Virus record (IMG/VR): IMGVR_UViG_3300034157_000066 | DNA: 64,000 nucleotides | Source of the DNA: a virus | Taxonomy: Duplodnaviria > Heunggongvirae > Uroviricota > Caudoviricetes | Strand: one strand, 5' to 3' | Shown: positions 30,071-47,871 of the stretch, one piece after another | How positions within the stretch are numbered: the first letter of the stretch is position 1 | How the letters are laid out: each line of letters begins with the position of its first letter | Made by a program: the position numbers and the translations under genes | Notes under the pieces: model-generated | The model's database searches: none | The model's input: the letters and a program-made list of their open reading frames with translations, nothing else | What the model was told of the DNA's origin: nothing

Positions 30071-30511
30071 ATGATGGGCGTAGGCAAATATTCTCCAACT
30101 GTCAGCACTTCCTACCGTAAAGATCAAGATTGGTATGAAAAAAATGGCGGCGGTTTTAGCAATGGTAAAAACCCTGATTCCGATTACGATGATGATGGAT
30201 ACGATTCGTATGGCTATAATGCCGATGGTCGTGACCGTGCGGGTCATCATGAAAATGATTATTCTTCTAGTTTTGAATGGAATGGTAATTCAGAATGTTA
30301 CCCACTGCATGAGGATGTGCAATCGGAATGGGGTTGTCGTTGTATTCTTGCTATGCGTAAGGCCCGTGAAGAAGCTGCTACTAATCCAGAAATGCAAGAA
30401 GCCTTCCGTCAGCTTGCAGAAGTTCAAGACATTCTCCGAAAAGCTGCTGAGATTGAGCGTGGATTGAAAGCCGATATTACTAAGGCTTATCCTGACCTTC
30501 TGCTCGATTGA
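30071..30511 (+). CDS. hypothetical Asp/Gly/Tyr-rich protein (146 aa), paralog A
   Basis: RBS aGAGGATACacATG; track ORF 30035 trimmed; paralog of 30622..31194. Confidence 0.65.
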   Translation: MMGVGKYSPTVSTSYRKDQDWYEKNGGGFSNGKNPDSDYDDDGYDSYGYNADGRDRAGHHENDYSSSFEWNGNSECYPLHEDVQSEWGCRCILAMRKAREEAATNPEMQEAFRQLAEVQDILRKAAEIERGLKADITKAYPDLLLD

Positions 30512-30621
30512 TTTTGTCAATACGATTAAAGACCTAGCTTCGGCTAGGTTTTTTTGTTTTAATGGTTGCTTATTTTTCAGTTTTTTGATAGTATATAATT
30601 CTAATTAAAGAGGATACACAC

Positions 30622-31194
30622 ATGGGCGTTGGAAAATATTCCCCAACTGTTAGCCGCTCTTACAGTCAAGACCAAGAATGGTTTGAGAAAAACGGCGGTG
30701 GCTTTGGTAATGGTCTGATGCCAGAATCTCAATTTGATAATCAGGGTTATGATTCGTATGGCTATTCCGGTTATACTGAACTTGATCGGGCTGGTTACAG
30801 TGAGAATGATTACCTGAATGATTCTTATGGTGATGACCAACGTGGTATCTATGACCGTGTTCGTGACTTGTGGGATCATTACAATGTGCCCACCATTCTC
30901 GACATGGCGATGATTGTTGCTACAAAAGTTGAAAATGACAAGCTTTTCGCCTTTAACCATGCGAAAATGGTAACGGTTATCAATATCTATGAAGCCGCCA
31001 ACACAGCCAAACACCAGTTGGATCAAACCTTCAAAATGGGAGCTGGTGCCGAAGGTAACGAAATGTATCAAAAAGAGTTCAAAGAATTTTTCAATGAAGT
31101 CGCCAAAAACATTGCCGAACACAGTGTTTTCTTGGAAGAGTTTTATGATAAATTCCTGACAGATTTCATCCAGCTTCAAAAGGCTTTTAAATAG
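30622..31194 (+). CDS. hypothetical protein (190 aa), paralog B
   Basis: RBS aGAGGATACacacATG; shared N-terminal 60 aa with 30071 product. Confidence 0.7.
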   Translation: MGVGKYSPTVSRSYSQDQEWFEKNGGGFGNGLMPESQFDNQGYDSYGYSGYTELDRAGYSENDYLNDSYGDDQRGIYDRVRDLWDHYNVPTILDMAMIVATKVENDKLFAFNHAKMVTVINIYEAANTAKHQLDQTFKMGAGAEGNEMYQKEFKEFFNEVAKNIAEHSVFLEEFYDKFLTDFIQLQKAFK

Positions 31195-31268
31195 CCAAAT
31201 ACGTTAAAAATGTTTGTTATGTCTCACAAAGAATGCTATAATCAATTTTCAATTTAAGAGGTGTTACC

Positions 31269-31502
31269 ATGAAAAGCCAACTTCAAGAAGACCAAGCAGA
31301 ATCGCAATCGACCAACACTGTTGAAGCCAAAGCGGTTGCCATGCTGATGGCTCGCAATGAGCGTCTTACTTCCCTGTTGGGTTGCCTTGTCGAAAGCATT
31401 ACTACCGACACCGAAGGTAAAGAAATCAGTGAACAACTGAAAGCTGACCTTGATCTGGCTAACCAGACGCTTGATGAGTATGAACAAACCCCGCTTTATT
31501 AA
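31269..31502 (+). CDS. hypothetical acidic protein (77 aa)
   Basis: Promoter tgcTATAAT ~31232-31240, RBS aAGAGGTGttaccATG. Confidence 0.65.
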   Translation: MKSQLQEDQAESQSTNTVEAKAVAMLMARNERLTSLLGCLVESITTDTEGKEISEQLKADLDLANQTLDEYEQTPLY

Positions 31503-31580
31503 TAAATAAAGCTTGTTTTAAAAGGTAATATTTGCTACACTTGCTTTTCACTAATCTAAACTAAATAAGGATACACATCA

Positions 31581-32435
31581 ATGCTTAAAAAGATTTTTGC
31601 TTCTCTTGTTCTTCTGGCATCAGTTGCCCTCAGTGGGTGTTCTGAAACCGTAGACGCTGGTTTTGTTGGTGTTGTTGAAAAACATCCCTACGTTGGTCCG
31701 GGTGGTGTAGAGAAAGAATTTTACAAAGGTGGTGATCGCTACTATATCTCGCCAACCTCCATCATGCACCGCTATGACATTAAACCTATTCAGAAAGAAG
31801 AAGCGTTTAATGACTTGGCAACCATTAACTCGACTCCGGTAGACTTTAAAGCGGTGGTTCGTTATGAAATCATTCCTGAAAAAGCTTACATCTACCATGA
31901 AAGCTTTGGTAATGCGATGTATGATAATAACTTGAAAAAAGACTTTCAAAACATGCTTCGTGACTTTGCTCGAAAACACACTGTGAAGCAACTCACTACA
32001 GAACAGACAGTGACTGACGCAGGTGAAGACGATGTTTACAAGAAAATGGTTGACATTGTTGTAGCAAAAGGCATTCCGGTTCGAATTTTGGCTGTAACTA
32101 TCGGTGCAATTATGCCACCCGATGAAGTTCTTGCAGAAACTGCTCGGACAGAAGCTCAAATTCAACGTGCATTAACTGAAATTGAACGAGCATCTGCTGA
32201 AACTCAGCGAAAAGAAGCTGAAACCAACAAAGCTGCTGCTGACAATGAATACATGAGCAAAATGAAAATGACACCTGAGCAATACTTGCGAGGTCGTGAA
32301 ATTGATAACCAGCGTGAAATTGTTGAAACGGTCAAAAAGAAAGATAACGTCAACATGTTGATTGTCTTGGGTGGTGGTGGTTCCCTTCCACAAGGGGTAA
32401 CAGTTCCACAGCCAATCGTTCAACCAAAGCAGTAA
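31581..32435 (+). CDS. SPFH/band-7 (prohibitin/HflK-like) domain lipoprotein (284 aa)
   Basis: Lipobox LSGC; TVDAGFVGVVEK start typical of SPFH domain entry; C-terminal Ala/Glu/Gln-rich coiled-coil; terminator aaaggccaactagtggccttttttg ~32447-32475. Confidence 0.5.
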   Translation: MLKKIFASLVLLASVALSGCSETVDAGFVGVVEKHPYVGPGGVEKEFYKGGDRYYISPTSIMHRYDIKPIQKEEAFNDLATINSTPVDFKAVVRYEIIPEKAYIYHESFGNAMYDNNLKKDFQNMLRDFARKHTVKQLTTEQTVTDAGEDDVYKKMVDIVVAKGIPVRILAVTIGAIMPPDEVLAETARTEAQIQRALTEIERASAETQRKEAETNKAAADNEYMSKMKMTPEQYLRGREIDNQREIVETVKKKDNVNMLIVLGGGGSLPQGVTVPQPIVQPKQ

Positions 32436-32492
32436 ATAAGCAATAAGAAAAAAGGCCAACTAGTGGCCTTTTTTGTTGTCTTTAATTAAGTA

Positions 32493-32960
32493 TTAAAGGT
32501 TAGGGTAGCGGCATATTTTATAGTAGTTATACTTGGTATCAGCTCTATTAAATGCTCCTAATACATAAGTGTATTGACCAGCAATAAATGGGAAATATTT
32601 ATTTTGAGTATATACACTGTCTATAACTATTGTGTTAGTCCATTTAATATATCTAATCATGCCTATTGGATAAGGTGTTGATGTATTAAATGTCATTGCA
32701 TAGTTAGAACTTTCTGAATAGTTTTGGCATGTATACCCTGCCCTATCTTCGTCCTTTGGTGGCACTGGCGGTTCAGGAATTACAGGGACTTCTGGCTCAG
32801 GCGGTATTGGTGGTGTTTCTGGATTTGTAGGCGGTTTGATCTTTGAAAATACGATGTCACCTTCATTTAAGTGAGCTTTTGGATGAATGACCACTTGATA
32901 ACTTGCATTCGCTATTGTTGTTACAGCCAATAAAGAGGCTATCATTATTATTTTTTTCAT
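32493..32960 (-). CDS. secreted protein (155 aa): signal peptide, Pro-rich linker, Cys-bounded aromatic C-terminal domain (...YYKICRYPNL)
   Basis: MKKIIMIASLLAVTTIANA|SYQVVIHPKA; PPTNPETPPIPPEPEVPVIPEPPVPP; own minus-strand promoter tgtatTATAAT ~32975-32990; C-term aligns with 8515/16311/56048 C-termini. Confidence 0.7.
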   Translation of the reverse strand: MKKIIMIASLLAVTTIANASYQVVIHPKAHLNEGDIVFSKIKPPTNPETPPIPPEPEVPVIPEPPVPPKDEDRAGYTCQNYSESSNYAMTFNTSTPYPIGMIRYIKWTNTIVIDSVYTQNKYFPFIAGQYTYVLGAFNRADTKYNYYKICRYPNL

Positions 32961-33110
32961 ATTTTATTTTTATTGTTCTTAATATTATAATACATCTATT
33001 TAATAAAATAACAACATAGCCAGTAATTACGGAAGTTTTTCTAAAAAAATATTGTCATTTTTCAGTTTTTGTTGTATAATTATTCCACACTTATGTTGAG
33101 AGGATTTACC

Positions 33111-33365
33111 ATGACTACCGTTCAAACTCCAAAAGAAAGCGTGATTGAAGAAGCTACTGACATGATCGACCGTGTTCTTGCTGACGCTCGGGCTAAACTG
33201 CTGAAAGCTGTTGAATGTGGTGCCCTGAACATCACCGAAGATACCTCGACACACATTGCCCTTGGTAAAGTTGTTGCCAAAGCTGTTTTGCTGGATGCTA
33301 TCGACAATCAGTTGACTTTGGGTAAACGTGATAAAGAAGTCAAGAACCTTCGCAGCCAGATTTAA
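33111..33365 (+). CDS. hypothetical protein (84 aa)
   Basis: Promoter ttgTATAAT ~33072-33080, RBS ttGAGAGGAtttaccATG; terminator aagcaggctttcggggctgcttttttt. Confidence 0.65.
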   Translation: MTTVQTPKESVIEEATDMIDRVLADARAKLLKAVECGALNITEDTSTHIALGKVVAKAVLLDAIDNQLTLGKRDKEVKNLRSQI

Positions 33366-33492
33366 GCAGTAGCGACGTTCAAAAAAGCAGGCTTTCGGGG
33401 CTGCTTTTTTTTGACTTAAAATAAGATAAATGTTGTTTTTGTTTTTCATCCTTGTTATAATTGCTCCATCAAAACCAAAGGGGTTTACCATC

Positions 33493-33771
33493 ATGTCTAT
33501 CACTACTGTAACCGTCACTTTTAAAGTCGATACTGTTCTTCGTGACGATACCACTGACTTCTTTCATTTGGACGCTGAAATCCATCATAAGAATGTTTAT
33601 GAGTTTCAGGTGCTGAGCTATGACAAAGACCGTAAACTGTGTGTGGCGGAACTCTACTTGCACAGTGCAGTAGACGAAAGCAAACTGCCAACCCTTTTCG
33701 ATGGTTCCCGACTGTCGGTTAGCGTGGATTGCCGCGAAGTTGAATACTCAGGTTTGACGATTGCTGCATAA
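33493..33771 (+). CDS. hypothetical protein (92 aa)
   Basis: Promoter aaatgttgtttttg...tgTTATAAT 33428-33468, RBS aAAGGGGtttaccatcATG. Confidence 0.65.
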   Translation: MSITTVTVTFKVDTVLRDDTTDFFHLDAEIHHKNVYEFQVLSYDKDRKLCVAELYLHSAVDESKLPTLFDGSRLSVSVDCREVEYSGLTIAA

Positions 33772-33836
33772 GGTCAACAAGGTTATTAATCAGCAGTCCT
33801 TCTGGGCTGCTTTTTCTTTTTTTAAGGAGTTCACAG

Positions 33837-34019
33837 ATGTTAAAAGAAGATCTTTATCACTGGCAAGACACCCCAGAAGAAATGCAAAAATGCGACGAAG
33901 TATTCGAAAAATTTAACGCGGCTGGTTTGCTGGATGATTTGAAATACATCATTGATAAACGCATGGCAGACGCCCGTTCAGAAGAAGCGTATAATAATGC
34001 GAATTTTTCCGAAACGTAA
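33837..34019 (+). CDS. hypothetical protein (60 aa)
   Basis: RBS ttAAGGAGttcacagATG. Confidence 0.55.
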   Translation: MLKEDLYHWQDTPEEMQKCDEVFEKFNAAGLLDDLKYIIDKRMADARSEEAYNNANFSET

Positions 34020-34134
34020 CAAGCAATCATCTTCAAGAAATTTGTAGATATTTTTCAATAATCTGTTTTTTGACTTGCCTTCACTGCTGTATTTCGATAT
34101 AATAGCCCAACTCAAACCAGTAGAGATTTGAACC

Positions 34135-35256
34135 ATGTCCAGCATCTTCCCGCGTATTGAAACCCTTGATGATATGCTTCCTCACATCAAAGACCGTGCC
34201 TATATTTCTGTTAATAAACAGGATAACGGTGCCAACATCGTTTGCTATAACATCAGCAACGGCGACTCTTTCAACACTCCGGTTGAAAAGGAAGCTCGCG
34301 GTATTACCTTTGACGACAACGGTAAAATCCTGTCGCGTCCATTGCACAAATTCTTCAACTTGGCAGAGCGTGCAGAAGTCCAACCAGCCGTTTTGGATTG
34401 GAACACGATGGTCGCCGGGTTTGATAAAATGGATGGCTCCATGATTACCACAGGGCTGTTCAACGGCGAATTTTTTGCTAAGTCCAAGAAGTCTTTCAAA
34501 TCGGATGTGGCTGTTTCTGCAGAAAGTTTTGTGTCTCGTAACCAGAAATACTACGAGTTCACCAAATATTGCTCTCAGGCCCAACTGACCCCTATTTTTG
34601 AATTCACTTCGCCAAAACATCGTATCGTTTTGCGTTATGACGAAGACAACATGACACTTCTTCATGTTCGTCACAACATCACAGGCGATTACTTAATGCC
34701 TGCTGACAAAGACCAACTGGCGTTGTTGTTTGATATTCCTGTTAACAAGCCACTGTTTGGTGAAGAATTTGATTTGGCTGCTTTATTGAAGTCGCTGAAC
34801 ACTGTTGAAGGGATTGAAGGCTACGTTATTCAGTTCGTTAACGGTAACATGATCAAAATCAAAACCAAATGGTATATGAACCTCCATCATGCGGTTAGCT
34901 TTGTTCGTGAACGTGATATTGCTCGGTTGGTGGTTGAAGAAAAACTTGATGATTATATCGCTTATTTGTCGCTGAACTCGCCAACGGCTGATTTGAGTGA
35001 GATTTATCGAATCAATGACGCTATCAAAGCTTCGATTGAAGCGTTGTCGAAAGAAGTTGATGATATTGCTGCTGAATTCCAAGGTGTTGATGTGAAAACT
35101 GCAGCAATTCAGCTTAAAGGCCATAAACACTTTGGTTTTGTTATGGGTGCAATTCGTGGTCACAAAAACGACTACCTGTATCACTACTCTAAAAACCATC
35201 TGGTGGATTGGTCGTTGGAACAAATTGAGCTTGGCGACTTGTCAGCTCCGGTTTAA
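34135..35256 (+). CDS. rnlA: RNA ligase 1 family (T4 RnlA-like) paralog A, 373 aa
   Basis: KxDG adenylation motif (FDKMDGSM), RGITFD.NG...RP..KFFNL, EGYV.QF..G...KIKT.WY.NLHH blocks; same length (373-374 aa) as T4 Rnl1; promoter cgaTATAAT ~34096-34104; terminator aagccctgcacttgcggggcttttt ~35270. Confidence 0.8.
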   Translation: MSSIFPRIETLDDMLPHIKDRAYISVNKQDNGANIVCYNISNGDSFNTPVEKEARGITFDDNGKILSRPLHKFFNLAERAEVQPAVLDWNTMVAGFDKMDGSMITTGLFNGEFFAKSKKSFKSDVAVSAESFVSRNQKYYEFTKYCSQAQLTPIFEFTSPKHRIVLRYDEDNMTLLHVRHNITGDYLMPADKDQLALLFDIPVNKPLFGEEFDLAALLKSLNTVEGIEGYVIQFVNGNMIKIKTKWYMNLHHAVSFVRERDIARLVVEEKLDDYIAYLSLNSPTADLSEIYRINDAIKASIEALSKEVDDIAAEFQGVDVKTAAIQLKGHKHFGFVMGAIRGHKNDYLYHYSKNHLVDWSLEQIELGDLSAPV

Positions 35257-35373
35257 ATCAGTATGAAGAAAGAAGCCCTGCACTTGCGGGGCTTTTTAAT
35301 AATAATCTATTTTTTGGTTGTTAATATTTAGTGTTTGATGTATAATCAATCCATCAAAACAGAGGTTTATCTC

Positions 35374-35757
35374 ATGACAACCATCCGCGATAAAGCAGCT
35401 AACGTAGACATCACCAGCAAAGGCTTTCTTGATTTTACTGCCCCATTCCGAAAAGGTCAGCATTCTGTTATTTGCTGGTCTTTGGTCGAAGATGGTTCTT
35501 GTGGCATAGAGGAAACCATTGCTTGTCCACCTAATTTTCAACTGGTGGCTATGATGTTTCCAGACGTTTCGGCGGTTGTTATGATGGAGTTGGCTCAAAA
35601 ACTGCGTAGCTTTTTCAACTCTTGGTGGATAACCGAAGAACCTGAAGCTTATGCAGAGCCGCCACGAAACTATTCGCGTTTTTCTGCAACCATTGAATAC
35701 ACTCGCCTTTACGCTTTCTATCTTGAACAGAAAGAGGCGATGGACGTAAAAGCGTAA
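35374..35757 (+). CDS. hypothetical protein (127 aa) between the two RNA ligases
   Basis: Promoter gatgTATAAT ~35338-35347, RBS acAGAGGtttatctcATG. Confidence 0.6.
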   Translation: MTTIRDKAANVDITSKGFLDFTAPFRKGQHSVICWSLVEDGSCGIEETIACPPNFQLVAMMFPDVSAVVMMELAQKLRSFFNSWWITEEPEAYAEPPRNYSRFSATIEYTRLYAFYLEQKEAMDVKA

Positions 35758-35848
35758 ATATCACAACAAAAGGCAGTCTTTGACTGTCTTTTTCATTGTT
35801 TGAAAACAATATTTCATGTATAATCCACTGATTAACACAGAGGTTTCT

Positions 35849-36166
35849 ATGACTAAATTTCGAATTGCTTATGACCCAGAAAATGGTGTTTCAACCCCAG
35901 ATGGAGTGTGTGTTGCTATTGTTGACGAGCTGATTTCTCTTCGTCAGTTTGGAGATGTGACTTACACCACTGCTACGGCCACTGTTATCACTGCATTCCG
36001 GTTGGCTGCGGCTGAAAAGAAAATCAGCGTTGACGATATTGTCTTTGTTTTTGATGGGTCTGATGTCACAATGGACAACAAATTTGAACTGTCGGCTTGG
36101 CCTAAACAGGGCGACATTCAAGGCAACATGCTTGGAAAAATCATGCAAGCACGAAAAAAAGTTTGA
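35849..36166 (+). CDS. hypothetical protein (105 aa); paralog of 54270..54584
   Basis: Promoter atgTATAAT ~35817-35825, RBS acAGAGGtttctATG; shared YDP..GV.T.DG...and FRLA...K.(L/I)S..DIV blocks. Confidence 0.65.
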   Translation: MTKFRIAYDPENGVSTPDGVCVAIVDELISLRQFGDVTYTTATATVITAFRLAAAEKKISVDDIVFVFDGSDVTMDNKFELSAWPKQGDIQGNMLGKIMQARKKV

Positions 36167-36222
36167 ATTAAAAATCAGTTTTTGATATAATCAATTCAGA
36201 CAATTTAATCGTGGAGATTCAC

Positions 36223-37344
36223 ATGACTTATCAACAAGAACTGTATGCCCAACTGATGAACCTGTTGGTGACGAATCCGGGGTCGTTCAAATACCGTGAT
36301 GAAACCTCGGCAGTAGACGGCGGGACTTACCGTGTCTTCAACTATGACATTCCAAAGCACTCCGAATTCAAACTTCCGGGTGCTAAGGATTGCCGTGGGG
36401 TCATGTTCTACATGGGCGGTGATGATCCAGTGCTGGTTGCATTGCCTATGCAGAAATTTTTCTCGCTCGGTGAAACCCCAGAGACTCAAAAGATCAAGCC
36501 AGAAGAAGCGGATCATGCTTACTTGAAGCCGGACGGTTCCTTGCTGACCAGCTATATCTCGCCGGTTAACAATACGCTTTACTACAAGAGCAAAAAGAAG
36601 CCAACTTTTGCCGATTATGACCTTGTTGAAAAGTCTATCAGCCCTGAATTGCACGCTGACATTGAACGGTTGACCCGCACAGGTGTTTCTGTTGACTTGG
36701 AATTGACCACGCCCAAAAACCGCGTGTTCATTGAATACACTGATTACGCTGTTCATATCCTAAAAGCCCGTGATATGAGCACTGGTGCTTATGTTGATAT
36801 TCGTTCGGCTGAATTCGCTGCCAAATACCCGGTTATTGCGGCCCATTTGGTGAAACGTATCCCTATCAATGAACTCAACGTCAATGACCCTGAGATTGAG
36901 GGTTATGTGGTTGAATTTGGCACTGACATGTATAAGGTGAAGACAATTCCTTACCTGAAAATGTCGGCAGTTGTCAACATTCAGGATCGGTCGAAGGAAC
37001 GTCAGGTTATTTATGAAGCAACACTTCACGAAATTCTGGATGAAATCCGTTCGTTGTATCACTACCGGACGCACAGCGACAACTTCCCACTGGCTGAAAT
37101 TCTGGCTCGCTTGGATGAAGTAGAAGACTATGCACGTAAAAGCTACCATTACCTTGTTCGCACGGTCGATAGCTTCCACAATGAGCATAAAGGTCTGGAA
37201 CGTGGCGATTACGCTCGTAAAGCCAAAGAAGTGGCTCCATTGCTTCTGTCGGTGTTGATGAGCAAGTTTTCGGGTGATGAGATTGATTACAAACAAGCTG
37301 CTATCATGGTATTTGCTCGTAAACAAGTGCCTATTCCCGAGTAA
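36223..37344 (+). CDS. rnlA: RNA ligase 1 family (T4 RnlA-like) paralog B, 373 aa
   Basis: GGTYRVFNYD...CRGVMF, MQKFFSLGETPE, YLKPDGSLLTSY (KxDG), EGYVVEFGTDMYKVKT, EHKGLERGDYARKAK closely parallel T4 Rnl1 blocks; promoter ttgaTATAAT ~36183-36192; terminator aacggccctagtcttctagggcttttttat ~37353. Confidence 0.85.
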   Translation: MTYQQELYAQLMNLLVTNPGSFKYRDETSAVDGGTYRVFNYDIPKHSEFKLPGAKDCRGVMFYMGGDDPVLVALPMQKFFSLGETPETQKIKPEEADHAYLKPDGSLLTSYISPVNNTLYYKSKKKPTFADYDLVEKSISPELHADIERLTRTGVSVDLELTTPKNRVFIEYTDYAVHILKARDMSTGAYVDIRSAEFAAKYPVIAAHLVKRIPINELNVNDPEIEGYVVEFGTDMYKVKTIPYLKMSAVVNIQDRSKERQVIYEATLHEILDEIRSLYHYRTHSDNFPLAEILARLDEVEDYARKSYHYLVRTVDSFHNEHKGLERGDYARKAKEVAPLLLSVLMSKFSGDEIDYKQAAIMVFARKQVPIPE

Positions 37345-37473
37345 GTGACTGTTTAATAAAACGGCCCTAGTCTTCTAGGGCTTTTTTATTTCTATTAAAA
37401 AATAGCTTTACGAAAATTATGTTTTTTGCTATAATTCAACTGTTGAAACATACATACTACTCAGGAGCTGAAA

Positions 37474-37761
37474 ATGCCATTCACTGCAAGCATTGTTAAC
37501 CGTCATGGTTACGCCCATGCTTTCTGCAAATCCAGCCACGGCCATTACTACATGGGTGGCCCGAAAACTGCAGAAGTGGTTTTTCAAACGGTAAAAGAGT
37601 TCAATGATTTTGTTGAACATCTGGAACATTTGACGGTTGAAGACCCGCGTGTTTCTCAGTATGACCTTGATGTGTTTGGTTTTGTTAAAGGTCGTGTTCA
37701 ATTTGATTTGATTACACCGAAAACCGCTAGACCACCAGCACCCATTCATAAACTTAAATAA
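37474..37761 (+). CDS. hypothetical protein (95 aa)
   Basis: Promoter tgcTATAAT ~37422-37430, RBS tcAGGAGctgaaaATG. Confidence 0.65.
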   Translation: MPFTASIVNRHGYAHAFCKSSHGHYYMGGPKTAEVVFQTVKEFNDFVEHLEHLTVEDPRVSQYDLDVFGFVKGRVQFDLITPKTARPPAPIHKLK

Positions 37762-37774
37762 TATTGGAGTTGTC

Positions 37775-38086
37775 ATGAAAAAATTACTGTGCTTTTTGGC
37801 TGTACCCTTTTTGCTAACAGGTTGTTTGGATGAATTAAAAACGTCCGAAGCTTCACAGGTAAGCACTGCGAATACAATCAAGTATCAAAAGGAAATTGAT
37901 ATTGCTCGGGATAACGGCCCGCAAGATATTGTTTGTAGCTCAGGTGGTGTTGTTACCTATAAGCACGAAAATGTTATCTTGTATCGTAGCATTTATTCAG
38001 ATACTAGAAACATTGATGTCTATGAACAAGACACTACTGAGAAAGTTGTTGTTTCTGGGGACTGCACCATTCGCCCACATAAGTAA
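37775..38086 (+). CDS. small lipoprotein (103 aa), paralog 1 (Llp/superinfection-exclusion-like candidate)
   Basis: MKKLLCFLAVPFLLTGC lipobox; RBS ttGGAGttgtcATG; mature part with 2 Cys (DIVCSSGGVVTY...DCTIRPHK). Confidence 0.7.
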   Translation: MKKLLCFLAVPFLLTGCLDELKTSEASQVSTANTIKYQKEIDIARDNGPQDIVCSSGGVVTYKHENVILYRSIYSDTRNIDVYEQDTTEKVVVSGDCTIRPHK

Positions 38087-38127
38087 CACATATTTTCGTT
38101 TATTTAGAACAAATTATTGGAGACTTT

Positions 38128-38421
38128 ATGAAAAAAATATTAGTTGGATTAGCTCTTTCATTGGCACTGTCAGGTTGTGATCGTGTACAACCCGCTGCTG
38201 TAGATCCTCAAAACAGGGTTATCAGTTATGAACGCGAATATGGCCCGAAAGATATCATTTGCCATTCTGGTTCAGTGGTGACTTATGATCACAAAAATGT
38301 CATTATTTATCAAAATATTCAGCATAATTCTACCATTCTCGATGTTTATGAGAATGATACTCATGAAAAGATTGGTTTGCCAGTGGCTCAATGTATTTGG
38401 CGACCTCACAAGCAAAGTTAA
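38128..38421 (+). CDS. small lipoprotein (97 aa), paralog 2
   Basis: MKKILVGLALSLALSGC lipobox; RBS attGGAGActttATG; aligns with 37775 product (DIICHSGSVVTY...QCIWRPHK); terminator aaagccgctttcgagcggtttttt. Confidence 0.7.
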   Translation: MKKILVGLALSLALSGCDRVQPAAVDPQNRVISYEREYGPKDIICHSGSVVTYDHKNVIIYQNIQHNSTILDVYENDTHEKIGLPVAQCIWRPHKQS

Positions 38422-38515
38422 CTGTTGAAAAAGCCGCTTTCGAGCGGTTTTTTGTTGTCTAATTGTTGATAAATCTGTATAATAACGATATAGATAAATC
38501 CATGAGGCTACGCGA

Positions 38516-39193
38516 ATGAAACTGACTCACGCTGAAATCATTGTTAAACGCATCATGTTGACTAGTCCGCTTACGTCAAAAAGTCGTTTGTCCGTATTGT
38601 CTCATATTCTTTTGCGTGAGCCTTTCGCACAGTGGGGTGCTGATGGGTGTGTTCATATTCACAAAGTAAAAGACACCAATCCTCGAAAAGCAGTCATGTC
38701 CATGCCGGATCATTTGGTGAAACCGCTTGACATTGACAAGGAAATTCAGAAAATGATGCCTGATTACTATGAGGCTCGATTGGTAGAGCGTGAACTTGAA
38801 ATCATGCAATATGCCTTCATGGAAAAGAACATTGATATTTATGCCAAAAAGAACCTGTCGCATCAACCCGGATTGAAAGCAGAAGTATTGACTGCCAATG
38901 CCAGCAATGCTCTCATTTTTAGTATCCCTGACAATGTTGAAGCCAGTTGGAAAAAAGCTGCTCTGGAAGTGGTTGACGCTATTATCTTGGCGTTGCGGGA
39001 AGAAAAATTTATTACTCGCAACCTTAAAGGTGAAAAAAATGACCCGTTGAAAGCTGAAAACTGGCGAATGGGGTATTGGGCTAGCATGTATGAAAAATTT
39101 CACAACGTTCGTGAAAAACTTTCTCCACCCGTTTCCAATCGTGCGGTTCTCGATATATCGGCAATGTGGGATTCGGTTGTAAATCCGAAATAA
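38516..39193 (+). CDS. hypothetical protein (225 aa)
   Basis: Promoter ctgTATAAT ~38474-38482; terminator gaccgctttcgagtggttttttt ~39215. Confidence 0.6.
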   Translation: MKLTHAEIIVKRIMLTSPLTSKSRLSVLSHILLREPFAQWGADGCVHIHKVKDTNPRKAVMSMPDHLVKPLDIDKEIQKMMPDYYEARLVERELEIMQYAFMEKNIDIYAKKNLSHQPGLKAEVLTANASNALIFSIPDNVEASWKKAALEVVDAIILALREEKFITRNLKGEKNDPLKAENWRMGYWASMYEKFHNVREKLSPPVSNRAVLDISAMWDSVVNPK

Positions 39194-39300
39194 AAACAGT
39201 TCAAACCATTAAAAGACCGCTTTCGAGTGGTTTTTTTATTGTGAAAAACTCATATTTGTTGTATAATAGCTGCATCTTAACTCGAACAGGTAAATGAAAA

Positions 39301-39876
39301 ATGTCTACTATCAATGTTGGTAAACTCTCTGAAATCAAATCCAGCTCCGAATTGAAACGCAAGCTTGAACAAATCAAGTCTGGCATCAAAATGGCCGTAA
39401 GCCAGTTGGAAAAGACTGCAGTGGTTGTTCCACAAGAATACCTGTTCACGTTCCGCATGGGTCACAAAATTTTCACCGTTGTTCCTAACACGGAAGAACT
39501 TTCCAAAGGCACCTTCGACTTGGGCCAACAGCTTAAAAAACTGGAACTGGCTGACTTCCAAAAAGTCAATCTGCTGGTTGAGCTGGAATCTGTTTCGTTG
39601 AACGACCGCATGAACAGCATGAAATCGGATGTGTTGACCATTAAAGGCAGCGATGTTCGTTTTCGTGCAAAACACATCATCAAGCCAGCACAACCCGGCC
39701 AAGAACACCTGAACGCATGGTCGAATTTGACTGATGTTGTTTCGATTGTTGTTACTCGCCTTCCAGAAAATCCAGAAGTGCGTGTTCAAGCCGAATTGGC
39801 ACACTTGAAAGACGTTATTGAAAATTCGAGCCTTTTCGCAGTAGATAAAGATGAAAATCTTTTGATTAAACTGTAA
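39301..39876 (+). CDS. hypothetical protein (191 aa); distant paralog of 25710..26264
   Basis: Promoter ttgTATAAT ~39258-39266; shared L.IKGSDVRF block. Confidence 0.6.
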   Translation: MSTINVGKLSEIKSSSELKRKLEQIKSGIKMAVSQLEKTAVVVPQEYLFTFRMGHKIFTVVPNTEELSKGTFDLGQQLKKLELADFQKVNLLVELESVSLNDRMNSMKSDVLTIKGSDVRFRAKHIIKPAQPGQEHLNAWSNLTDVVSIVVTRLPENPEVRVQAELAHLKDVIENSSLFAVDKDENLLIKL

Positions 39877-39948
39877 AAAAAGCTTGTCCAAATAAGAGTT
39901 TTTCGGTATACTACACCCATCAAATCAACGAAGTGAAGGAAATCAAAA

Positions 39949-40569
39949 ATGACTAAGACTACTGTTCTCAACCACTCCGCAATGTCCGCTAAGCTGCGTA
40001 GCATCTTCACCGCCAACAAAGATATGAAGGCTGTTTCGAAAATGCTCACCCAAGAATTCACCCTGTCGAAAACCGAAGTGCCAAACGTCATGACACTCAC
40101 CATGAAAAACGGTGAAACTCAATCGGTTACCATCATCGACAACCGTTTTGCAGTCATCAGCTACGCCAAGCCGAAGGGTGCGAAGGCCAGCACGATTTTC
40201 CTGAACAAATCGACGCCTATCACTTCGATGAAAGCCAGCAAAGTGGTTGTGGTTGACCTCGAAGAACGCACTGTCGAAAACGGCGACTCGTTCGTAGGCT
40301 TCTCGCTGAAAAACGGCGGCAACGTGCCAGTTGACTTCCTGTTGGGTAGCTCGCTGGAACTGGTCGCTGTTCGTAACTACATCAACCACACTCAACTCTA
40401 TGTTGCCACACTTGACAACAAAGTGCTGGTAGCCGATAACATCAAAGCAGTTCGTGCCTTCATCAACGCCGAAGTAAAAGTGGTTGTTGACGCTTTCGCA
40501 CCACGCGAAATGGAAGCCTTCGAAGCCGACCTGACCACTGCTCTGGAAGGTTCGGTAGCGACTGCTTAA
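39949..40569 (+). CDS. hypothetical protein (206 aa)
   Basis: Promoter cggTATACT ~39905-39913, RBS gaAGGAaatcaaaaATG; higher GC and biased codon usage suggest high expression; terminator aagcccttgaccagttcaggggcttttttc. Confidence 0.65.
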   Translation: MTKTTVLNHSAMSAKLRSIFTANKDMKAVSKMLTQEFTLSKTEVPNVMTLTMKNGETQSVTIIDNRFAVISYAKPKGAKASTIFLNKSTPITSMKASKVVVVDLEERTVENGDSFVGFSLKNGGNVPVDFLLGSSLELVAVRNYINHTQLYVATLDNKVLVADNIKAVRAFINAEVKVVVDAFAPREMEAFEADLTTALEGSVATA

Positions 40570-40697
40570 CCTTTCGAAGTAATCAAAAGCCCTTGACCAG
40601 TTCAGGGGCTTTTTTCATTCAAAAATAAGTTTTTTGTTGCCTTTAACGGCTATTTTTGATATACTTATCGCAACTTAAAATGAATGAGGATTTTACA

Positions 40698-41570
40698 ATG
40701 TTCCATACCAACGGAAACCGTCGCCCAAACCCTGTTCTGTCCATTGTGATCAATCATCATGGTAAAAGCTTCAATGAAGTGGTTCGTTTTGTAAATGGCT
40801 ATTTCAGTGAGGTTAAAAACAGTCGCGTTTCCATGCTGTTGGATAAAAAGGTTTTTGCACAGGCACTGTATCCGCTGAAAACAGTGAACCGTATTGAGTG
40901 GAAATCGGTTGAAGACACTTACAAAAGTGAAGGTAACTACACTTTGTTCAACATCACCAAAACAGCCACTAAACATGAGGCTCTGTTGAATATCTACATC
41001 ATCCCACAAGAAATGTTGCTGGAAATGCCAAAGCAAAAGGACACTAACTTTGAAGCTACGATGAATCCTGATTTTGTCGTGGAAGAAAAACGTCTTAGCC
41101 AAGGCCCGGTCATTACCGTTTTCACGACCGAAGACATTGATGGTGTTCATTACTTCAAAAGCCAGACAGAAGCCCTGTATTACGTCAAAGGCAATCAGTC
41201 TGCACTGTCTACTGTTGATGTTATTTGTGTCGGTGATGAATACTTTGAAGTGAAGGCTAAATTGCCCGCTTTCAAAGCCGTCAATGTCAATGAGCATAAA
41301 CTGTTTGCTTTCGTGCCACACAAGGCACCAAAAGACCAGACAATGTTTTCGGCCAGTGTTGACCGTGCTGATCGAAATGTCTTCACTCATGACGTGGATA
41401 GCTTCGAAGATGGCCTTTACAAAGTTCAAGGTAGCTTGACTGGGGCGGTTCTGGTTGAAACTTTGACCAGCAAAATCAAATCCAGCACTCGCAAAGCTTA
41501 CTTCTTGAAATATGGTTCGGATGAATACAAAAAAGTAGTGGCTGAAATGCCAATGGTTACGACTGTTTAA
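40698..41570 (+). CDS. hypothetical protein (290 aa)
   Basis: RBS atGAGGAttttacaATG; track ORF 40656 trimmed; terminator aagacctagcgataggtctttttttt. Confidence 0.6.
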   Translation: MFHTNGNRRPNPVLSIVINHHGKSFNEVVRFVNGYFSEVKNSRVSMLLDKKVFAQALYPLKTVNRIEWKSVEDTYKSEGNYTLFNITKTATKHEALLNIYIIPQEMLLEMPKQKDTNFEATMNPDFVVEEKRLSQGPVITVFTTEDIDGVHYFKSQTEALYYVKGNQSALSTVDVICVGDEYFEVKAKLPAFKAVNVNEHKLFAFVPHKAPKDQTMFSASVDRADRNVFTHDVDSFEDGLYKVQGSLTGAVLVETLTSKIKSSTRKAYFLKYGSDEYKKVVAEMPMVTTV

Positions 41571-41685
41571 TCATTCAAAACTATTAGAAAAGACCTAGCG
41601 ATAGGTCTTTTTTTTATTCTATAAAAAATCGACAACTCTTCATTTATTTGTTATAATTACAGTCAATTAAAAGCGAGAAAATATC

Positions 41686-42105
41686 ATGTCAAATCAAGCA
41701 GCAGCGACTATCCTAATGCCAGAAAGTGGACAACAATGGAAATGTGTTGAAGAATTTGATTTTTTGAACACTTCAATTCCGTTCACTGTTCTTGATGTAA
41801 CTGACAATGTGGTCTACTTCACTCCAGACAAAATACACTTTAAAGACGGTGCTTTTTACAATGAAATTACCATTCACAATGCTTATGGCACAACGTGTTT
41901 TTCAATGGAACCTTTTACATACAGAAAGGGCATTCCAAGCAAAATTTTGTACAAGCCTTTAAATTTTCGAAAACTTCGGCTGGATTTGTTCTTAAATGAA
42001 TTTCAGCGTGCTCCAGATGTAGTCAATGTTGTAGATAGTCACAAACCTTCGGGTTTTCTGTCTTCATGGTTTTCTAAACTCAAATCCAAAATATCAGCTA
42101 TTTGA
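41686..42105 (+). CDS. hypothetical protein (139 aa)
   Basis: Promoter tgTTATAAT ~41649-41657. Confidence 0.55.
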   Translation: MSNQAAATILMPESGQQWKCVEEFDFLNTSIPFTVLDVTDNVVYFTPDKIHFKDGAFYNEITIHNAYGTTCFSMEPFTYRKGIPSKILYKPLNFRKLRLDLFLNEFQRAPDVVNVVDSHKPSGFLSSWFSKLKSKISAI

Positions 42106-42198
42106 AAATTAAATAGCAACATCATCCTTCATTTTTATCGACACTTAGACCTTTTTTTGGTATAATTGAGGTTATCCAATAATGTCTAGGTGTTTCCT

Positions 42199-42975
42199 AT
42201 GTCTATCAAACCAAAAGCTCTCTATGACTTGTTTTTTAAAGAACACTACATTCCTTTAAGTGAAACTATTGTTCGCTTGAACATGTTGGCTAACTTTATT
42301 GAAAAGCAGCCGGGAACACTGGCTTTCAATAAAGCCCACATGACCAATGACGACACGACTGATCGTAAAGAAAGCCTTGATAACTGCAGCATTGTTGAGT
42401 GGGCAGCACAAGACCCGTCTTTCAACTCTATTGGCCTTTGGATGACTTCAAAGGAAAGCAAGCATGACCGTGATTTCGTTCTGACACCTTATCCACATTT
42501 TAAAACTTTCTATAAGCTCACCTATGCACCGGGAGCAACTACACAAAAAGAAGCAGACGCTGAGCATGATAAATTTTTCCCTATGGCCGTCTTCTTTGGT
42601 TTGCATCCAGCCGTTTATAAATACCTATTTTCTTCTCTTAACTATGAGTATGATTTTGGTATTTTCAAATACACTATTATTCACTGGTTGAAATCTCTTG
42701 ATATTCCAGAATTTTATTGGTCTACTTTGAATTTGGAGACGACTAACAAATATTTCCGTTTTGGCCCAATGGATATGGTGAAACGTATTCGACATTTTGT
42801 CAGTATTCTGGAACAATCACCATTGACCAGCACTTATGAAGCTACCTATAACATGCTGGATACCTCAGAAGGTCAGCTTGAAACAGAAGCTAATCGAATT
42901 TCTGTGAAAATTCACCACTTTATTAAAAAGATGTCGATTTTTAACTTTTTGGCTAACTTTTCAAAATCTGCTTGA
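42199..42975 (+). CDS. hypothetical protein (258 aa)
   Basis: Promoter tggTATAAT ~42159-42167, RBS ctAGGTGtttcctATG. Confidence 0.6.
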   Translation: MSIKPKALYDLFFKEHYIPLSETIVRLNMLANFIEKQPGTLAFNKAHMTNDDTTDRKESLDNCSIVEWAAQDPSFNSIGLWMTSKESKHDRDFVLTPYPHFKTFYKLTYAPGATTQKEADAEHDKFFPMAVFFGLHPAVYKYLFSSLNYEYDFGIFKYTIIHWLKSLDIPEFYWSTLNLETTNKYFRFGPMDMVKRIRHFVSILEQSPLTSTYEATYNMLDTSEGQLETEANRISVKIHHFIKKMSIFNFLANFSKSA

Positions 42976-43039
42976 TTAAAATCTAATTTTTGAGGTATAA
43001 TTCAGTATCTCATTAATTCATTACAGTTGAGGAATCATC

Positions 43040-43513
43040 ATGTATCTTGAAGAATCGAACGCCGCTCCAGCAAAACGTCCCATGTCGGTAAAAAAGACAA
43101 TGCCTGTTGTTGCAAAACAAGAACCAACACCAGAAGAAATGGCGGTTGCCTTTTTTGACCATTTTGGTTCACTCAATCTGCAAGAGTTTTTTAGTCATAA
43201 TGATTTGTTTAACGTCCGTGAAGTCATTCGTGAAGTCATGAACATTGAATCCTTTCAACTCGATCCAGAAGAGACAGGCTACAACAACCTTCCAAAAAAA
43301 GGTTTTCGCTTTGCTTATTTCCCTAATTATCTGTATGACGAAAAAAATCCACATAGTTTTGACCCCGCAACCACTGAACTGGTTGAAGCATGGGCTAAAC
43401 GCCATGATTATTTCTTCTATGTTGATGATGCGTATGCGTATATCGGCATTCCAGAAGACATGTTCCCTATGCCTTATTTCAGCAAGTTTAAGACGGCTTT
43501 TGAAGACGCTTAA
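43040..43513 (+). CDS. hypothetical protein (157 aa)
   Basis: Promoter gagGTATAAT ~42993-43002, RBS ttGAGGAatcatcATG. Confidence 0.65.
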   Translation: MYLEESNAAPAKRPMSVKKTMPVVAKQEPTPEEMAVAFFDHFGSLNLQEFFSHNDLFNVREVIREVMNIESFQLDPEETGYNNLPKKGFRFAYFPNYLYDEKNPHSFDPATTELVEAWAKRHDYFFYVDDAYAYIGIPEDMFPMPYFSKFKTAFEDA

Positions 43514-43593
43514 AAGGCAGTTTTCTCAAATAAGAAATGACATCCTTGTAAAAATGGGGTATACTTACCCCATTAATCAAATAGGTGATTATC

Positions 43594-43860
43594 ATGGTTG
43601 ATCGACATATTGTACCAAAAGATGCTTTGGAACTGATCACTACACAGAAGACCGTGCCCGCTGGATCTACTATTGTCATTCTCGCCAGTGACGTTCTGGC
43701 ATTGCGTGAAAAACTGGGGTTTTTTGAAATCATTGCAAAAGAACACCGTGACCTGTTGCAACGCCTTCGCTATTCGGATAATGATGAAGGTGATCGTGAT
43801 GCGGATCGTGCCCGCGAAACCATTCGTGTAATAAATGTGAAATTAGCTCAAAAAGTTTAA
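43594..43860 (+). CDS. hypothetical protein (88 aa)
   Basis: RBS atAGGTGAttatcATG; track ORF 43585 trimmed. Confidence 0.6.
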   Translation: MVDRHIVPKDALELITTQKTVPAGSTIVILASDVLALREKLGFFEIIAKEHRDLLQRLRYSDNDEGDRDADRARETIRVINVKLAQKV

Positions 43861-43932
43861 AATCCCCTTGTAAATGTGGTTTTTGATTGATATAATTACC
43901 CCACACAAACAGATACCTAAGAGGTTATCAAC

Positions 43933-44292
43933 ATGGCTACTCTTCAACAGTTGAAGAACAAAGAAATGTCCTACAACGAAACCAACAAAGACCAATTTCA
44001 CCGTGCCGGTAAAAAAGCACTGAAAGAACTGGCTGTGAAGCTGAATCTTCCAGCAGGTGGTTTTGAAGTTCGCAGTAACAAAGGTGGCATTGCCGTTTCG
44101 GGTGAAGTCACCCTGCACAGCGAAAGCCTGTATGTTCAAATCTCCGACTCTTCTTCGGGTCGTGGCCTGCAGGTTCTGTTCCGCACTTGCAAAGGTATGA
44201 AAGACTACTCTGGTGGTCAAAACAACTTTGCTGACATCGACCGCTTCGAATCGGAAGCTTTTGTTGAGCAACTGAAAAAAATGGCCGCATAA
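43933..44292 (+). CDS. hypothetical protein (119 aa) with the same conserved leader as the triplicated family
   Basis: Promoter ttgaTATAAT + leader TACCCCACACAAACAGA (43893-43918), RBS ctAAGAGGttatcaacATG; terminator gacccggacttggttccgggttttttat. Confidence 0.65.
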   Translation: MATLQQLKNKEMSYNETNKDQFHRAGKKALKELAVKLNLPAGGFEVRSNKGGIAVSGEVTLHSESLYVQISDSSSGRGLQVLFRTCKGMKDYSGGQNNFADIDRFESEAFVEQLKKMAA

Positions 44293-44467
44293 CCAAACGG
44301 TCTACCAAAGACCCGGACTTGGTTCCGGGTTTTTTATTTCTTAAATTTGTCTCAATTGTCAAGCCTTAAATCTAGAATAAATGTCATTTTTATTTGATAA
44401 ATTGCTTGTCGATTTATCCATACGCTGTTATAATAATCCCACTTAACCCAATCAAGGAAACAAAAAC

Positions 44468-44872
44468 ATGAAAGCATCTACTCTCTCCATTCTCATCGGT
44501 GCCTTGATCGCAGCCGTTCACCAGCTCGATAAAAACATGGCGTTGTTGGACAGCGTTACCGGCTTCGACACTGTTGACCAAGAAGCCAATGGCCGTTTGG
44601 CTAACAAGCACAAGTCCACAATCACCCGTCTTGACGGCCTCGTTTGCGACATGCGTGCCGCTGACCTTGATGGTGAACGTTCGGTTCGTCTTGACCCAAT
44701 GCAACTGCATAGCGTTAACCGGGCAGTGGCTGAACACATTGCCGAACTGGAAAAAGCAATGTCCTACTTCTGCCAAATGAAAGAAGCTGAATTTACCGTT
44801 CGCTCTTTCCAAGATAAAATCGAAGACCTGCATATGGCTGTGTTCCAAGCCAATAGCTGGGGCATTCGCTAA
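44468..44872 (+). CDS. hypothetical protein with N-terminal hydrophobic segment (134 aa)
   Basis: Promoter ctgTTATAAT ~44427-44436, RBS caAGGAaacaaaaacATG. Confidence 0.6.
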   Translation: MKASTLSILIGALIAAVHQLDKNMALLDSVTGFDTVDQEANGRLANKHKSTITRLDGLVCDMRAADLDGERSVRLDPMQLHSVNRAVAEHIAELEKAMSYFCQMKEAEFTVRSFQDKIEDLHMAVFQANSWGIR

Positions 44873-44996
44873 CCCATAGCGATAAGTCATTGAAAAGGCA
44901 TTCCAGCGATGGGGTGCCTTTTTTGCTTTCAATAAATGTTGTTTTTGTCTTCGGATAATGTTACAATGTCGGCACGATTAAAGAATCTTTCAACTT

Positions 44997-45653
44997 ATGG
45001 TGAACTTGATGAATCTGACTTATGAAGAACTTCAAACTTTGACCACTGCCTACAAATCAGCGAAAGAAGAATTGGGTAAAAAATTGGTGAGCTTGCCTGC
45101 AAGCACAAAAGTCTATAACCCAGCTACTCAGACAGAATCGAGCCTCTTTGACATTCTTCGTGCTATGAATGACGATGTTATGCCAGAAGAAGTAAAACCC
45201 GCTCATGAAGCCGCTCTACAAGCTTTGTTGACCTTTCAAAACCTCATGAATGAAAAGATTTATGAAGCCAAGGCCAACAACTACACGGTAAGCATGGCTA
45301 TTCGAAACTTGCATTCGGAATACCTTAAAGCTACTGCTATTCCAGAACGTTTGCTTTCAGCCGTCTTGTTGGTTAACAAGAAAAATATTGCAGAAGCCGA
45401 CCACTCTATTCTGGTGGATATTTATAAATCCTTGGGACTGACGCATTACTCCACCCATACTGCCCGTGACATCGTATATTACAATCCAGCCCAGCTTGAT
45501 TTGGACGGTTTGAAAAATATGGTTGTCATGAATTCACCTTCACTGTTTCAACACAATTACCCCAACTTTTGGGATAACATGACGGGTGAATACGTTGATG
45601 CGGACCCTTTGACGGCTTGTATGTTGATGGTTTTTAATGCACGAAAAGCTTAA
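44997..45653 (+). CDS. hypothetical protein (~215 aa); 4-gene family member
   Basis: ...LLVNKKNIAEADHSILVDIYKSLGLTHYSTHTARDIVYYNP... parallels 45778 product; start (44997 vs 45013) uncertain. Confidence 0.55.
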   Translation: MVNLMNLTYEELQTLTTAYKSAKEELGKKLVSLPASTKVYNPATQTESSLFDILRAMNDDVMPEEVKPAHEAALQALLTFQNLMNEKIYEAKANNYTVSMAIRNLHSEYLKATAIPERLLSAVLLVNKKNIAEADHSILVDIYKSLGLTHYSTHTARDIVYYNPAQLDLDGLKNMVVMNSPSLFQHNYPNFWDNMTGEYVDADPLTACMLMVFNARKA

Positions 45654-45777
45654 CGTCCACAATATAGGCATTCCAGCATTGGAGTGCCTTTTTCTTTTTT
45701 ATAATGTTGTTTTTGTAGTGGTTCAATGCTATAATAGCTCATTAGTTTAATCATCAAACCTACTTAGGGTGACAAAA

Positions 45778-47816: not shown

Positions 47817-47871
47817 AACTTCGGTTTCTGTTACAATAGATTTAACATCAATAGAACAAGGCAACGCCATC

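Follow-up and report, generated by a model that had tools for sequence, protein, structure and literature searches.

A tandem pair of putative phage lipoproteins from an exchangeable cassette slot in a jumbo-phage-like genome: candidates for superinfection exclusion

Introduction

To our knowledge, small phage lipoproteins that jam a receptor are known from a handful of coliphages, and all belong to one family, Llp/Cor. In phages T5 and T1, the exclusion gene adjoins, or lies within a few kb of, receptor-binding or tail-tip genes. T5 Llp is produced shortly after infection (bioRxiv 10.64898/2026.03.26.714494), and a disulfide that links the N- and C-terminal ends of the protein is required for its activity and for its binding of FhuA from the periplasm (PMC9586334; bioRxiv 10.64898/2026.03.26.714494). 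Here we describe two adjacent genes, for the putative lipoproteins Lpp1 and Lpp2, in a 64,000-nt stretch of the Caudoviricetes record IMGVR_UViG_3300034157_000066 from IMG/VR (hereafter the window, meaning the whole stretch that was analyzed). As far as their sequences allow us to judge, the best explanation of the pair is that they are two independent alleles of a new periplasm-facing lipoprotein family, found in a jumbo, T4-related, phage-like lineage.

The Lpp proteins resemble Llp and Cor in general plan. All would be small phage-encoded lipoproteins that run from a lipobox through a Cys, ∼45 beta-rich residues and a second Cys to a short tail, such that the two Cys bracket a beta-rich mature domain of ∼55–60 residues; the spacing between these Cys is 43–44 residues in the Lpp proteins, 47 in Llp, and 48 in T1 Cor. 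Other traits set them apart. The Lpp linker between the lipobox and the core has 20–35 residues, as compared to 3–9 for Llp and Cor, and the C-terminal RPHK tail conserved in Lpp is missing from both of the known proteins. Moreover, the slot that the Lpp genes occupy in their jumbo-phage-like genome takes one or two exchangeable cassettes, and no recognizable receptor-binding gene adjoins it.

Two paralogous lipobox genes

An initial annotation of the window had proposed two adjacent open reading frames (ORFs) of ∼100 aa with lipoboxes and alignable mature domains, and both are indeed present on the + strand (Table 1). Each protein begins with MKK, a hydrophobic stretch, and a lipobox whose Cys is at position 17. 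Both satisfy a rule of the PROSITE PS51257 type (K or R among the first 7 residues, a hydrophobic stretch without charges, [LVI..][ASTG..][GAS]C, and Cys at 15–35), through LTG↓C in Lpp1 and LSG↓C in Lpp2; this rule is passed by 4 of the 185 plausible ORFs of the window and by 21 of 22 family members, whose Cys is at position 17–20. The Pfam model LPAM_1 scores 16.1 bits on Lpp2, under its cut-off of 20.

The two proteins align by BLASTP at 41% identity (E=9e-26). They share the pattern GP.D..C..G...Y.H....Y, then DVYE.DT.EK, then C..RPHK, in agreement with the consensus and the two conserved Cys of the earlier proposal, and these mature Cys (C54 and C97 in Lpp1, C45 and C89 in Lpp2) are invariant in 18 of 18 aligned relatives. 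A GGAG ribosome-binding site lies 7–8 nt ahead of each ATG, and the genes are kept on more than 10 independent metagenomic contigs, with ratios of nonsynonymous to synonymous divergence (dN/dS) of 0.14–0.40. At the level of sequence, Lpp1 and Lpp2 are confirmed as real genes encoding paralogous lipobox proteins.

Table 1. Coordinates of the Lpp operon and its parts within the window
Feature	Position	Strand	Description
Operon promoter, sigma70-like	37407..37435	+	TTTACG, 17 nt, TATAAT; TG ahead of the -10 hexamer
up95, first cistron	37474..37761	+	95 aa; no signal peptide; His/Cys-rich N-terminus
Lpp1, type 1 cassette	37775..38086	+	103 aa; signal peptide, lipobox LLTG↓C, Leu at +2, ∼30-residue linker, beta core
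Lpp1 Cys codons	Cys17 37823-37825; Cys54 37934-37936; Cys97 38063-38065	+	
Inter-cassette junction	38087..38127	+	41 nt; second copy of the ATTATTGGAGA ribosome-binding-site block, with its own GGAG
Lpp2, type 2 cassette	38128..38421	+	97 aa; lipobox ALSG↓C, Asp at +2, ∼20-residue linker, beta core
Lpp2 Cys codons	Cys17 38176-38178; Cys45 38260-38262; Cys89 38392-38394	+	
Intrinsic terminator, operon end	38430..38455	+	AAAGCCGCTTTCGAGCGGTTTTTTG; hairpin and T-run; scanner-listed hairpin 38434-38447

An exchangeable cassette slot

Comparison of related metagenomic contigs indicates that the interval between up95, the gene directly upstream of Lpp1, and a conserved terminator is a slot filled by swappable lipoprotein cassettes. 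At least four cassette types occur in this same slot, either singly or, for types 1 and 2, stacked. The tandem arrangement of types 1 and 2 is found in the window and in loci L004-L009, L027, and L030/31; type 1 stands alone in L010-14 and L015-18, type 2 alone in L028 and L001-3, and type 3 alone in L022, while L023/24 carry a type without a lipobox (P0016).

Replacement is precise to the gene. Loci L001 and L022 are 95.7% identical over 9.2 kb, with flanks at 97–100% and the ORF at about 50–60%; at the protein level, their lipoproteins are 41% identical as compared to 84–100% for the neighbors. In a 30-nt sliding comparison of these two loci, identity stays at 97–100% until ∼10 nt past the ATG, drops to about 50–70% across the ORF, and is 100% right after the stop codon. 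All types share the same borders, ATTGGAG…ATGAA(A/G)AAA on the left and, on the right, AGCCGCTTTCGAGCGGTTTTTTGTTG followed by the next gene's CTGTATAAT. The internal junction of the tandem loci is a repeat of the left border, and the terminator hairpin follows the last cassette in nine loci that carry four cassette types, forming the conserved right-hand border of the slot.

In most pairwise comparisons, no gene of the neighborhood is more diverged than the Lpp genes. Relative to the window, their orthologues also rank near the top in divergence: in L030, Lpp1 is 81% and Lpp2 68% identical, as compared to 96–98% for RnlA1, up95, dn191, and dn206. The Lpp dN/dS values given above likewise exceed those of the slower neighbors RnlA1, RnlA2, and dn206 (0.05–0.15). 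In several pairs, the synonymous divergence (dS) of the Lpp genes is raised too; this suggests that old alleles have been exchanged, rather than that the genes mutate rapidly in place. Lpp1 and Lpp2 had been taken for a duplicated, diverged pair. Each cassette type also occurs alone in the same slot, and therefore each works on its own; these sequence comparisons better describe the pair as two old alleles of one cassette, stacked in tandem.

Just downstream of the slot, the 225-aa gene dn225 (38516-39193), which has no family match, likewise diverges faster than its neighbors in several pairs; it is 76% identical in L030, where the genes flanking it are at 96–98%. In the comparison of L001 with L022, by contrast, its identity is 96% and that of the lipoprotein 41%. 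We ruled out a local toxin-immunity pair, since the neighbors do not co-vary with the lipoprotein (dn227 at 96% and up84 at 90%, versus 41%).

Predicted fold

We ran AlphaFold2 on a 15-sequence alignment. In the Lpp2 model, the signal peptide and linker are disordered and are followed by a five-stranded core (strands 41-47, 50-62, 70-75, 80-85, and 89-93) with a predicted local distance difference test score (pLDDT) of 80–89. The Lpp1 model has the same strand order at lower confidence (strands 50-56, 59-67, 79-83, 90-94, and 96-101). Structure searches with the models returned only barrels of the SH3, Sm, or Tudor type, and the Lpp core is predicted to be an SH3-like beta-barrel. Of the predicted strands, the first and the last each contain one invariant Cys; because these two strands pair in such barrels, a disulfide that staples them together is plausible from the models.

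Among described proteins, the YgdI/YgdR (DUF903) SH3-like lipoproteins (e.g. PDB 3BDU) score below significance, by profile and by fold; the NCBIfam YgdI/YgdR model matches the signal peptide of one distant relative only, and the signature of two Cys and RPHK is missing there. A lysozyme inhibitor of the MliC type, suggested by an xSGxxxxY motif, found no Pfam match.

A small family of metagenomic proteins

Word-indexed searches of 5.8 billion proteins retrieved eight clusters for Lpp2 (P0001-P0008, 61–91% identity) and six for Lpp1 (P0009-P0014, 52–100% identity), all metagenomic and none with an informative name; a JGI label on one cluster, ‘LpoB’, was unsupported in our family scans. Exhaustive search with a hidden Markov model (HMM) of the family against 1.84 billion representatives yielded 13 hits. 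We judged four of these (P0017-P0020) to be spurious, being large repetitive proteins that match profile positions ∼25-72 only; one spurious relative is a eukaryotic BTB protein with PPQNVAICHASENRTY repeats. P0015 is a small lipoprotein of the third type, P0016 has a plain hydrophobic signal or anchor at its N-terminus in place of a lipobox, and P0021-P0024 are more distant small lipoproteins, the first three of which (P0021-P0023) are without the RPHK tail. In all, the family comprises ∼20 true relatives.

Scans of the full-length and mature proteins against Pfam, PHROGs, NCBIfam, and PADLOC gave only signal-peptide-level or sub-threshold matches, and a sequence profile search of the PDB with the family gave none. 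Against deposited phage genomes, a nucleotide search with 37000-39500 found no match and tblastn with Lpp2 found nothing below E=7. No relatives were found in scans of IMG/VR and of GTDB (185,579 species-representative genomes), while a scan of JGI metagenomes found a single locus. By these sequence searches, the Lpp family is previously undescribed, tiny, and unannotated.

Transcription unit

The promoter ahead of up95 is a strong one, which scores 10/12 with an extended -10, and lies 38 nt upstream of the start of that gene, just past the terminator of the preceding gene (37363-37382). For up95 itself, the family scans gave no match; in all related contigs long enough to show it, the gene immediately precedes the lipoprotein slot, at 61–97% identity. 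Its stop codon is 13 nt from the Lpp1 ATG, with no promoter between. At the junction between the cassettes, our scan found neither a promoter nor a terminator, and the ribosome-binding site with its ATGAAAAAA start block also precedes type 2 where that type stands alone after up95 (L028). As laid out in the sequence, up95, Lpp1, and Lpp2 are cistrons 1, 2, and 3 of one operon that runs from the promoter to the hairpin terminator.

Across 30000-50000, and in the window generally, nearly every + strand gene is its own unit, with a sigma70-like promoter 35–45 nt upstream and its own terminator. Promoters of the region often consist of a T-run and then TGnTATAAT, stop codons are followed by a GC hairpin and T-run, and the median intergenic spacer is 100 nt. 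Because the neighboring genes are mostly monocistronic, the three-gene operon stands out. In virulent phages, a promoter of the host type is usually a sign of early expression, and we infer from it that the Lpp operon would be transcribed early.

Replicon and genome context

Of the 119 ORFs in the window, 83% lie on one strand; ORFs average ∼150 aa, the GC content is 34–41%, and three tRNAs are present. Pfam detects 14 families among 91 window proteins and leaves ∼88% of proteins without a domain; its matches include two T4-type RNA ligases, an HNH endonuclease, RNase T, NUDIX, Band_7, and pentapeptide repeats. The closest match of RnlA1 is its homologue in the Ralstonia jumbo phage RsoM2USA (42% identity). 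A concatenated 19-protein query retrieved, among the matches listed, only phages of 337–595 kb (including SCTP-2, Atu_ph07, CBB, GAP32, and LR756511), and Phage_T4_Y00F (PF26820) is encoded just upstream of the window. This gene content supports a T4-related jumbo-phage-like element as the replicon.

Four contigs of more than 1 Mb carry a type 1 relative. The contigs with other Lpp relatives are of 34–320 kb, and those with P0027 and P0033 are of 208–320 kb. Two of the loci concerned, L015 (JGI 3300031134 Ga0308158_10000001, 790,625-810,933) and L016 (ENA ERZ27247443 k141_1011963, 1,047,378-1,067,686), have the gene order RnlA / RnlA2 / 95-aa gene / lipoprotein, and the 20 kb visible around this relative consist entirely of small phage-like ORFs with almost no Pfam matches. 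The contigs of more than 1 Mb could result from chimeric assembly, or could belong to a phage-like replicon of megabase size or to an integrated jumbo element.

Upstream of the operon lie two paralogues of T4-type RNA ligase 1 (RnlA, ‘tail fibre attachment catalyst’), at 34135-35256 and 36223-37344, that are 26% identical. The second RnlA is present in some related contigs and missing in others (L001), and does not strictly track lipoprotein type. Two other lipobox proteins are encoded elsewhere in the window, a 112-aa orphan (MMTG↓C) at 24423-24761 and a 284-aa Band_7/SPFH lipoprotein (LSG↓C) at 31581-32435 that matches the ‘lipoprotein’ family phrog_200 at 1e-22. Proteins with a signal peptide that looks cleavable and a like mature N-terminus (A/S-E/D/K-Y-x-I/V…P…F) are found at 6745-7260(-), 7362-8396(-), 8515-9222(-), 13120-14004(+), 16311-17255(+), 32493-32960(-), and 56048-56914(-); those starting at 7362, 8515, 16311, and 56048 are paralogous at 26–40%, and the other three are grouped by the N-terminal pattern only. 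Several of these genes are on the minority strand. The member at 13120-14004, which is matched by eight PHROG families, appears to be the single pentapeptide-repeat protein of the window.

Paralogue families of the window number at least 10, with many tandem pairs, at 23–63% identity. Their sites include 1491-2918, 3054-5611, 30071-31194, 44997-46425 with 19761-21952, and 55089-55772; further pairs are 35816-36166 with 54270-54584, and 39301-39876 with 25710-26264. Two of the tRNA genes are tRNA-Leu(TAA) at 57370-57455 and tRNA-Met(CAT) at 57722-57798, and a tRNA-like gene at 12355-12425, found by ARAGORN and Rfam (44 bits), has no assignable anticodon.

Discussion

Judged from sequence, a superinfection-exclusion or receptor-masking role is the most plausible reading of the Lpp genes. 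Stated more fully, they may be early lipoproteins that act from the periplasm in exclusion or modify the envelope, and whose alleles are exchanged in an arms race, a proposal that could well be right but that we hold tentatively. It gains circumstantial support from the host-type promoter and the gene-precise allele swapping between near-identical genomes; cassette swapping suggests, though it does not prove, a role in altering the envelope of the infected cell against rival phages. Host RNA polymerase would transcribe the Lpp genes from the sigma70-like promoter, presumably early, along with the 95-aa cytoplasmic protein. Export would follow and, going by the lipobox rule, lipidation on Cys17. 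The flexible linker would then tether an SH3-like barrel of ∼55 residues in the periplasm, probably with its first and last strands stapled by a disulfide, as the AlphaFold models and the two invariant Cys suggest. In our hypothesis, adsorption or DNA entry by phages of this lineage depends on some envelope component, and the barrel attaches to this component on its periplasmic side. Superinfecting relatives would thereby be excluded, and progeny might be spared binding to debris, much as T5 Llp acts on FhuA; alternatively, a later entry step would be blocked. Each cassette type would correspond to its own target or variant of a target. One or two types are present per genome, and the genomes exchange them, as the slot comparisons show, by recombination at the conserved borders.

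Several observations weigh against this proposal. Eight mature Lpp domains gave no match to phrog_1119 at E<=10, while mature T5 Llp, as a control, scored 2.2e-10; NCBIfam NF047972 reaches E=0.1, over residues 1-20 only. An HMM of the Lpp core gives Llp 3.5 bits, which ranks 45 of 5001 among composition-matched shuffles, and hhalign of Lpp with Llp gives 3% probability (P=0.015, 10 columns). T5 Llp (sequence taken from AY543070) does share FGPKDIKC with the YGPKDIIC of Lpp2, and the motif common to Lpp and T5 Llp, GP(K/Q)D(I/V)xC, has p∼0.01, but it is missing from T1 Cor. Altogether, the searches run matched the Lpp proteins neither in sequence nor in fold to Llp/Cor or any exclusion protein, and membership in Llp/Cor (phrog_1119, NF047972; PDB 7QJF, 8A60) is unsupported by profile, profile–profile, and fold comparison. 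The likeness to T5 Llp drawn in the initial annotation was thus not detectable as homology. The analogy it drew to T4 Imm and Sp also fails, since neither of these is a lipoprotein; their roles are described in bioRxiv 10.64898/2026.03.26.714494. That interpretation is partly supported. What survives of it is a paralogous pair of lipoproteins with two Cys, together with exclusion or receptor masking as the most plausible role; Llp/Cor homology, the Imm/Sp analogy, and the view of a duplicated pair do not. Genomic setting counts as well. No tail or receptor-binding family was found among the proteins scanned in 34135-40569, where most neighbors are without functional assignment, nor among the top 25 families matched across the window, while known exclusion lipoproteins are usually encoded beside a receptor-binding gene (PMC9586334). 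The dN/dS of the Lpp genes, for its part, remains below 1. With at least 10 other paralogue families in the window, and tandem and dispersed paralogues common in the genome, the paralogy of Lpp1 and Lpp2 is by itself not unusual. Lpp2 carries Asp at +2, a residue that in E. coli keeps a lipoprotein in the inner membrane, and the relative P0016 has no lipobox at all, so that an outer-membrane site of action of the Llp type is not assured. Finally, a type 1 relative with the same gene order, P0013, lies mid-contig on contigs of 1,859,102 and 1,281,823 bp from two assemblies; therefore even the designation ‘phage’ is not fully secure.

The main rival is that the Lpp proteins are periplasmic host-takeover factors and have no part in exclusion, in which case allele diversity would track host variants. 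As tethered inhibitors or binders, they would act on a host periplasmic enzyme or envelope machine (peptidoglycan hydrolase, protease, Tol-Pal, Lpt, or envelope-stress sensor) or an envelope-based defense. Export, lipidation, a small stapled barrel, an early-type promoter, and swapping would fit takeover equally; anchoring looks flexible, given the variable +2 residue and the N-terminus of P0016, and suits a soluble or inner-membrane-proximal target at least as well as an outer-membrane receptor, and the lack of a recognizable receptor-binding gene nearby is in keeping with it. Nevertheless, we consider takeover rather unlikely, given that the family scans turn up nothing resembling known inhibitors of lysozymes or proteases, or immunity proteins, and that gene-precise replacement between genomes 96–100% identical is more typical of phage–phage or phage–receptor conflict than of a housekeeping kind of takeover. 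Less likely again is an origin outside phages, whereby the Lpp proteins would be variable lipoproteins of a cell-like or integrated replicon of 1.3–1.9 Mb, serving on the envelope as antigens or accessory surface proteins without connection to infection by the element itself. The mid-contig position of P0013 on the two contigs just named favors such a replicon. Consistent with it are also the strong bias of genes toward one strand, the sigma70 promoters and terminators of individual genes, and the many paralogous secreted proteins and lipoproteins that the window encodes. It is made improbable by the small size of the genes and the large share of proteins without a Pfam domain, by recognizable genes that are of phage type (two T4 RnlA homologues, HNH endonucleases, Phage_T4_Y00F, and PHROG families), by the jumbo phages that make up the matches listed to deposited phage genomes, and by the distribution of relatives, with none among the 185,579 species-representative genomes and the other contigs at 34–320 kb.

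A further candidate, also less likely than takeover, is a spanin subunit of the outer membrane (o-spanin; examples are T4 PseT.2 and lambda Rz1) that would act with an inner-membrane partner (i-spanin) in membrane fusion at lysis. Gene order invites the comparison: T4 has rnlA, alc, pseT.3 (i-spanin), pseT.2 (a 99-aa lipoprotein o-spanin, LLVG↓C), pseT, and cd, and the order here is RnlA, a ∼100-aa lipoprotein, and then a dCMP deaminase ∼5–8 kb on; the size, lipobox, and periplasmic Cys of Lpp would suit an o-spanin too. Yet neither beside or overlapping the Lpp genes nor among the selected window ORFs of at least 60 aa is there a partner that combines an N-terminal transmembrane helix with a coiled coil, and the neighbors up95 and dn225 have no transmembrane segment. 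Alignment with T4 PseT.2 by hhalign covers the signal peptide only (probability 3%), and the best spanin profile, spanin2_1, reaches E=0.17 over residues 3-24. Like the promoters of most genes in the region, the Lpp promoter is host sigma70-like, with an extended -10, and not of a late type; moreover, the domain is predicted to be a folded barrel rather than a proline-rich extended chain, and a co-evolving spanin pair should not tolerate a copy number of 1 or 2 and 41%-identical replacement without change in the neighbors. We therefore regard an o-spanin as very improbable. A single-chain spanin was rejected because Lpp1 and Lpp2 have no C-terminal transmembrane helix in their sequences.

Beyond phages, the plasmid entry-exclusion lipoproteins TraT and EexN offer a precedent in which a small lipoprotein excludes relatives of the element that encodes it, with alleles that define ‘exclusion groups’. 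Their likeness to Lpp is in concept only; matches are at the level of the signal peptide and far under cut-offs (Eex_IncN, E=0.014–0.17). By analogy, the cassettes might be exclusion-group determinants of very large, perhaps megabase, phage-like replicons, with alleles that would jam different receptors or entry conduits from the periplasm, an extension of the exclusion proposal that we regard as unlikely. Similarly doubtful is its corollary, that genomes would redefine which relatives they exclude by stacking and swapping alleles, as a phage counterpart of the plasmid groups that is independent of Llp/Cor.

Should the Lpp proteins instead serve ordinary host takeover, they would still define a new family of periplasmic domains with clear limits, though one of modest interest. 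If the exclusion proposal is true, an unrelated family would do a job like that of Llp/Cor in uncultivated jumbo-phage-like genomes. The gene-precise slot, with its conserved borders and at least four allele types, marks a conflict gene and provides a natural experiment: if, in complete genomes, cassette type tracks the allele of a tail-fiber or ejection protein, then the target and the logic of exclusion would be readable from sequence alone.

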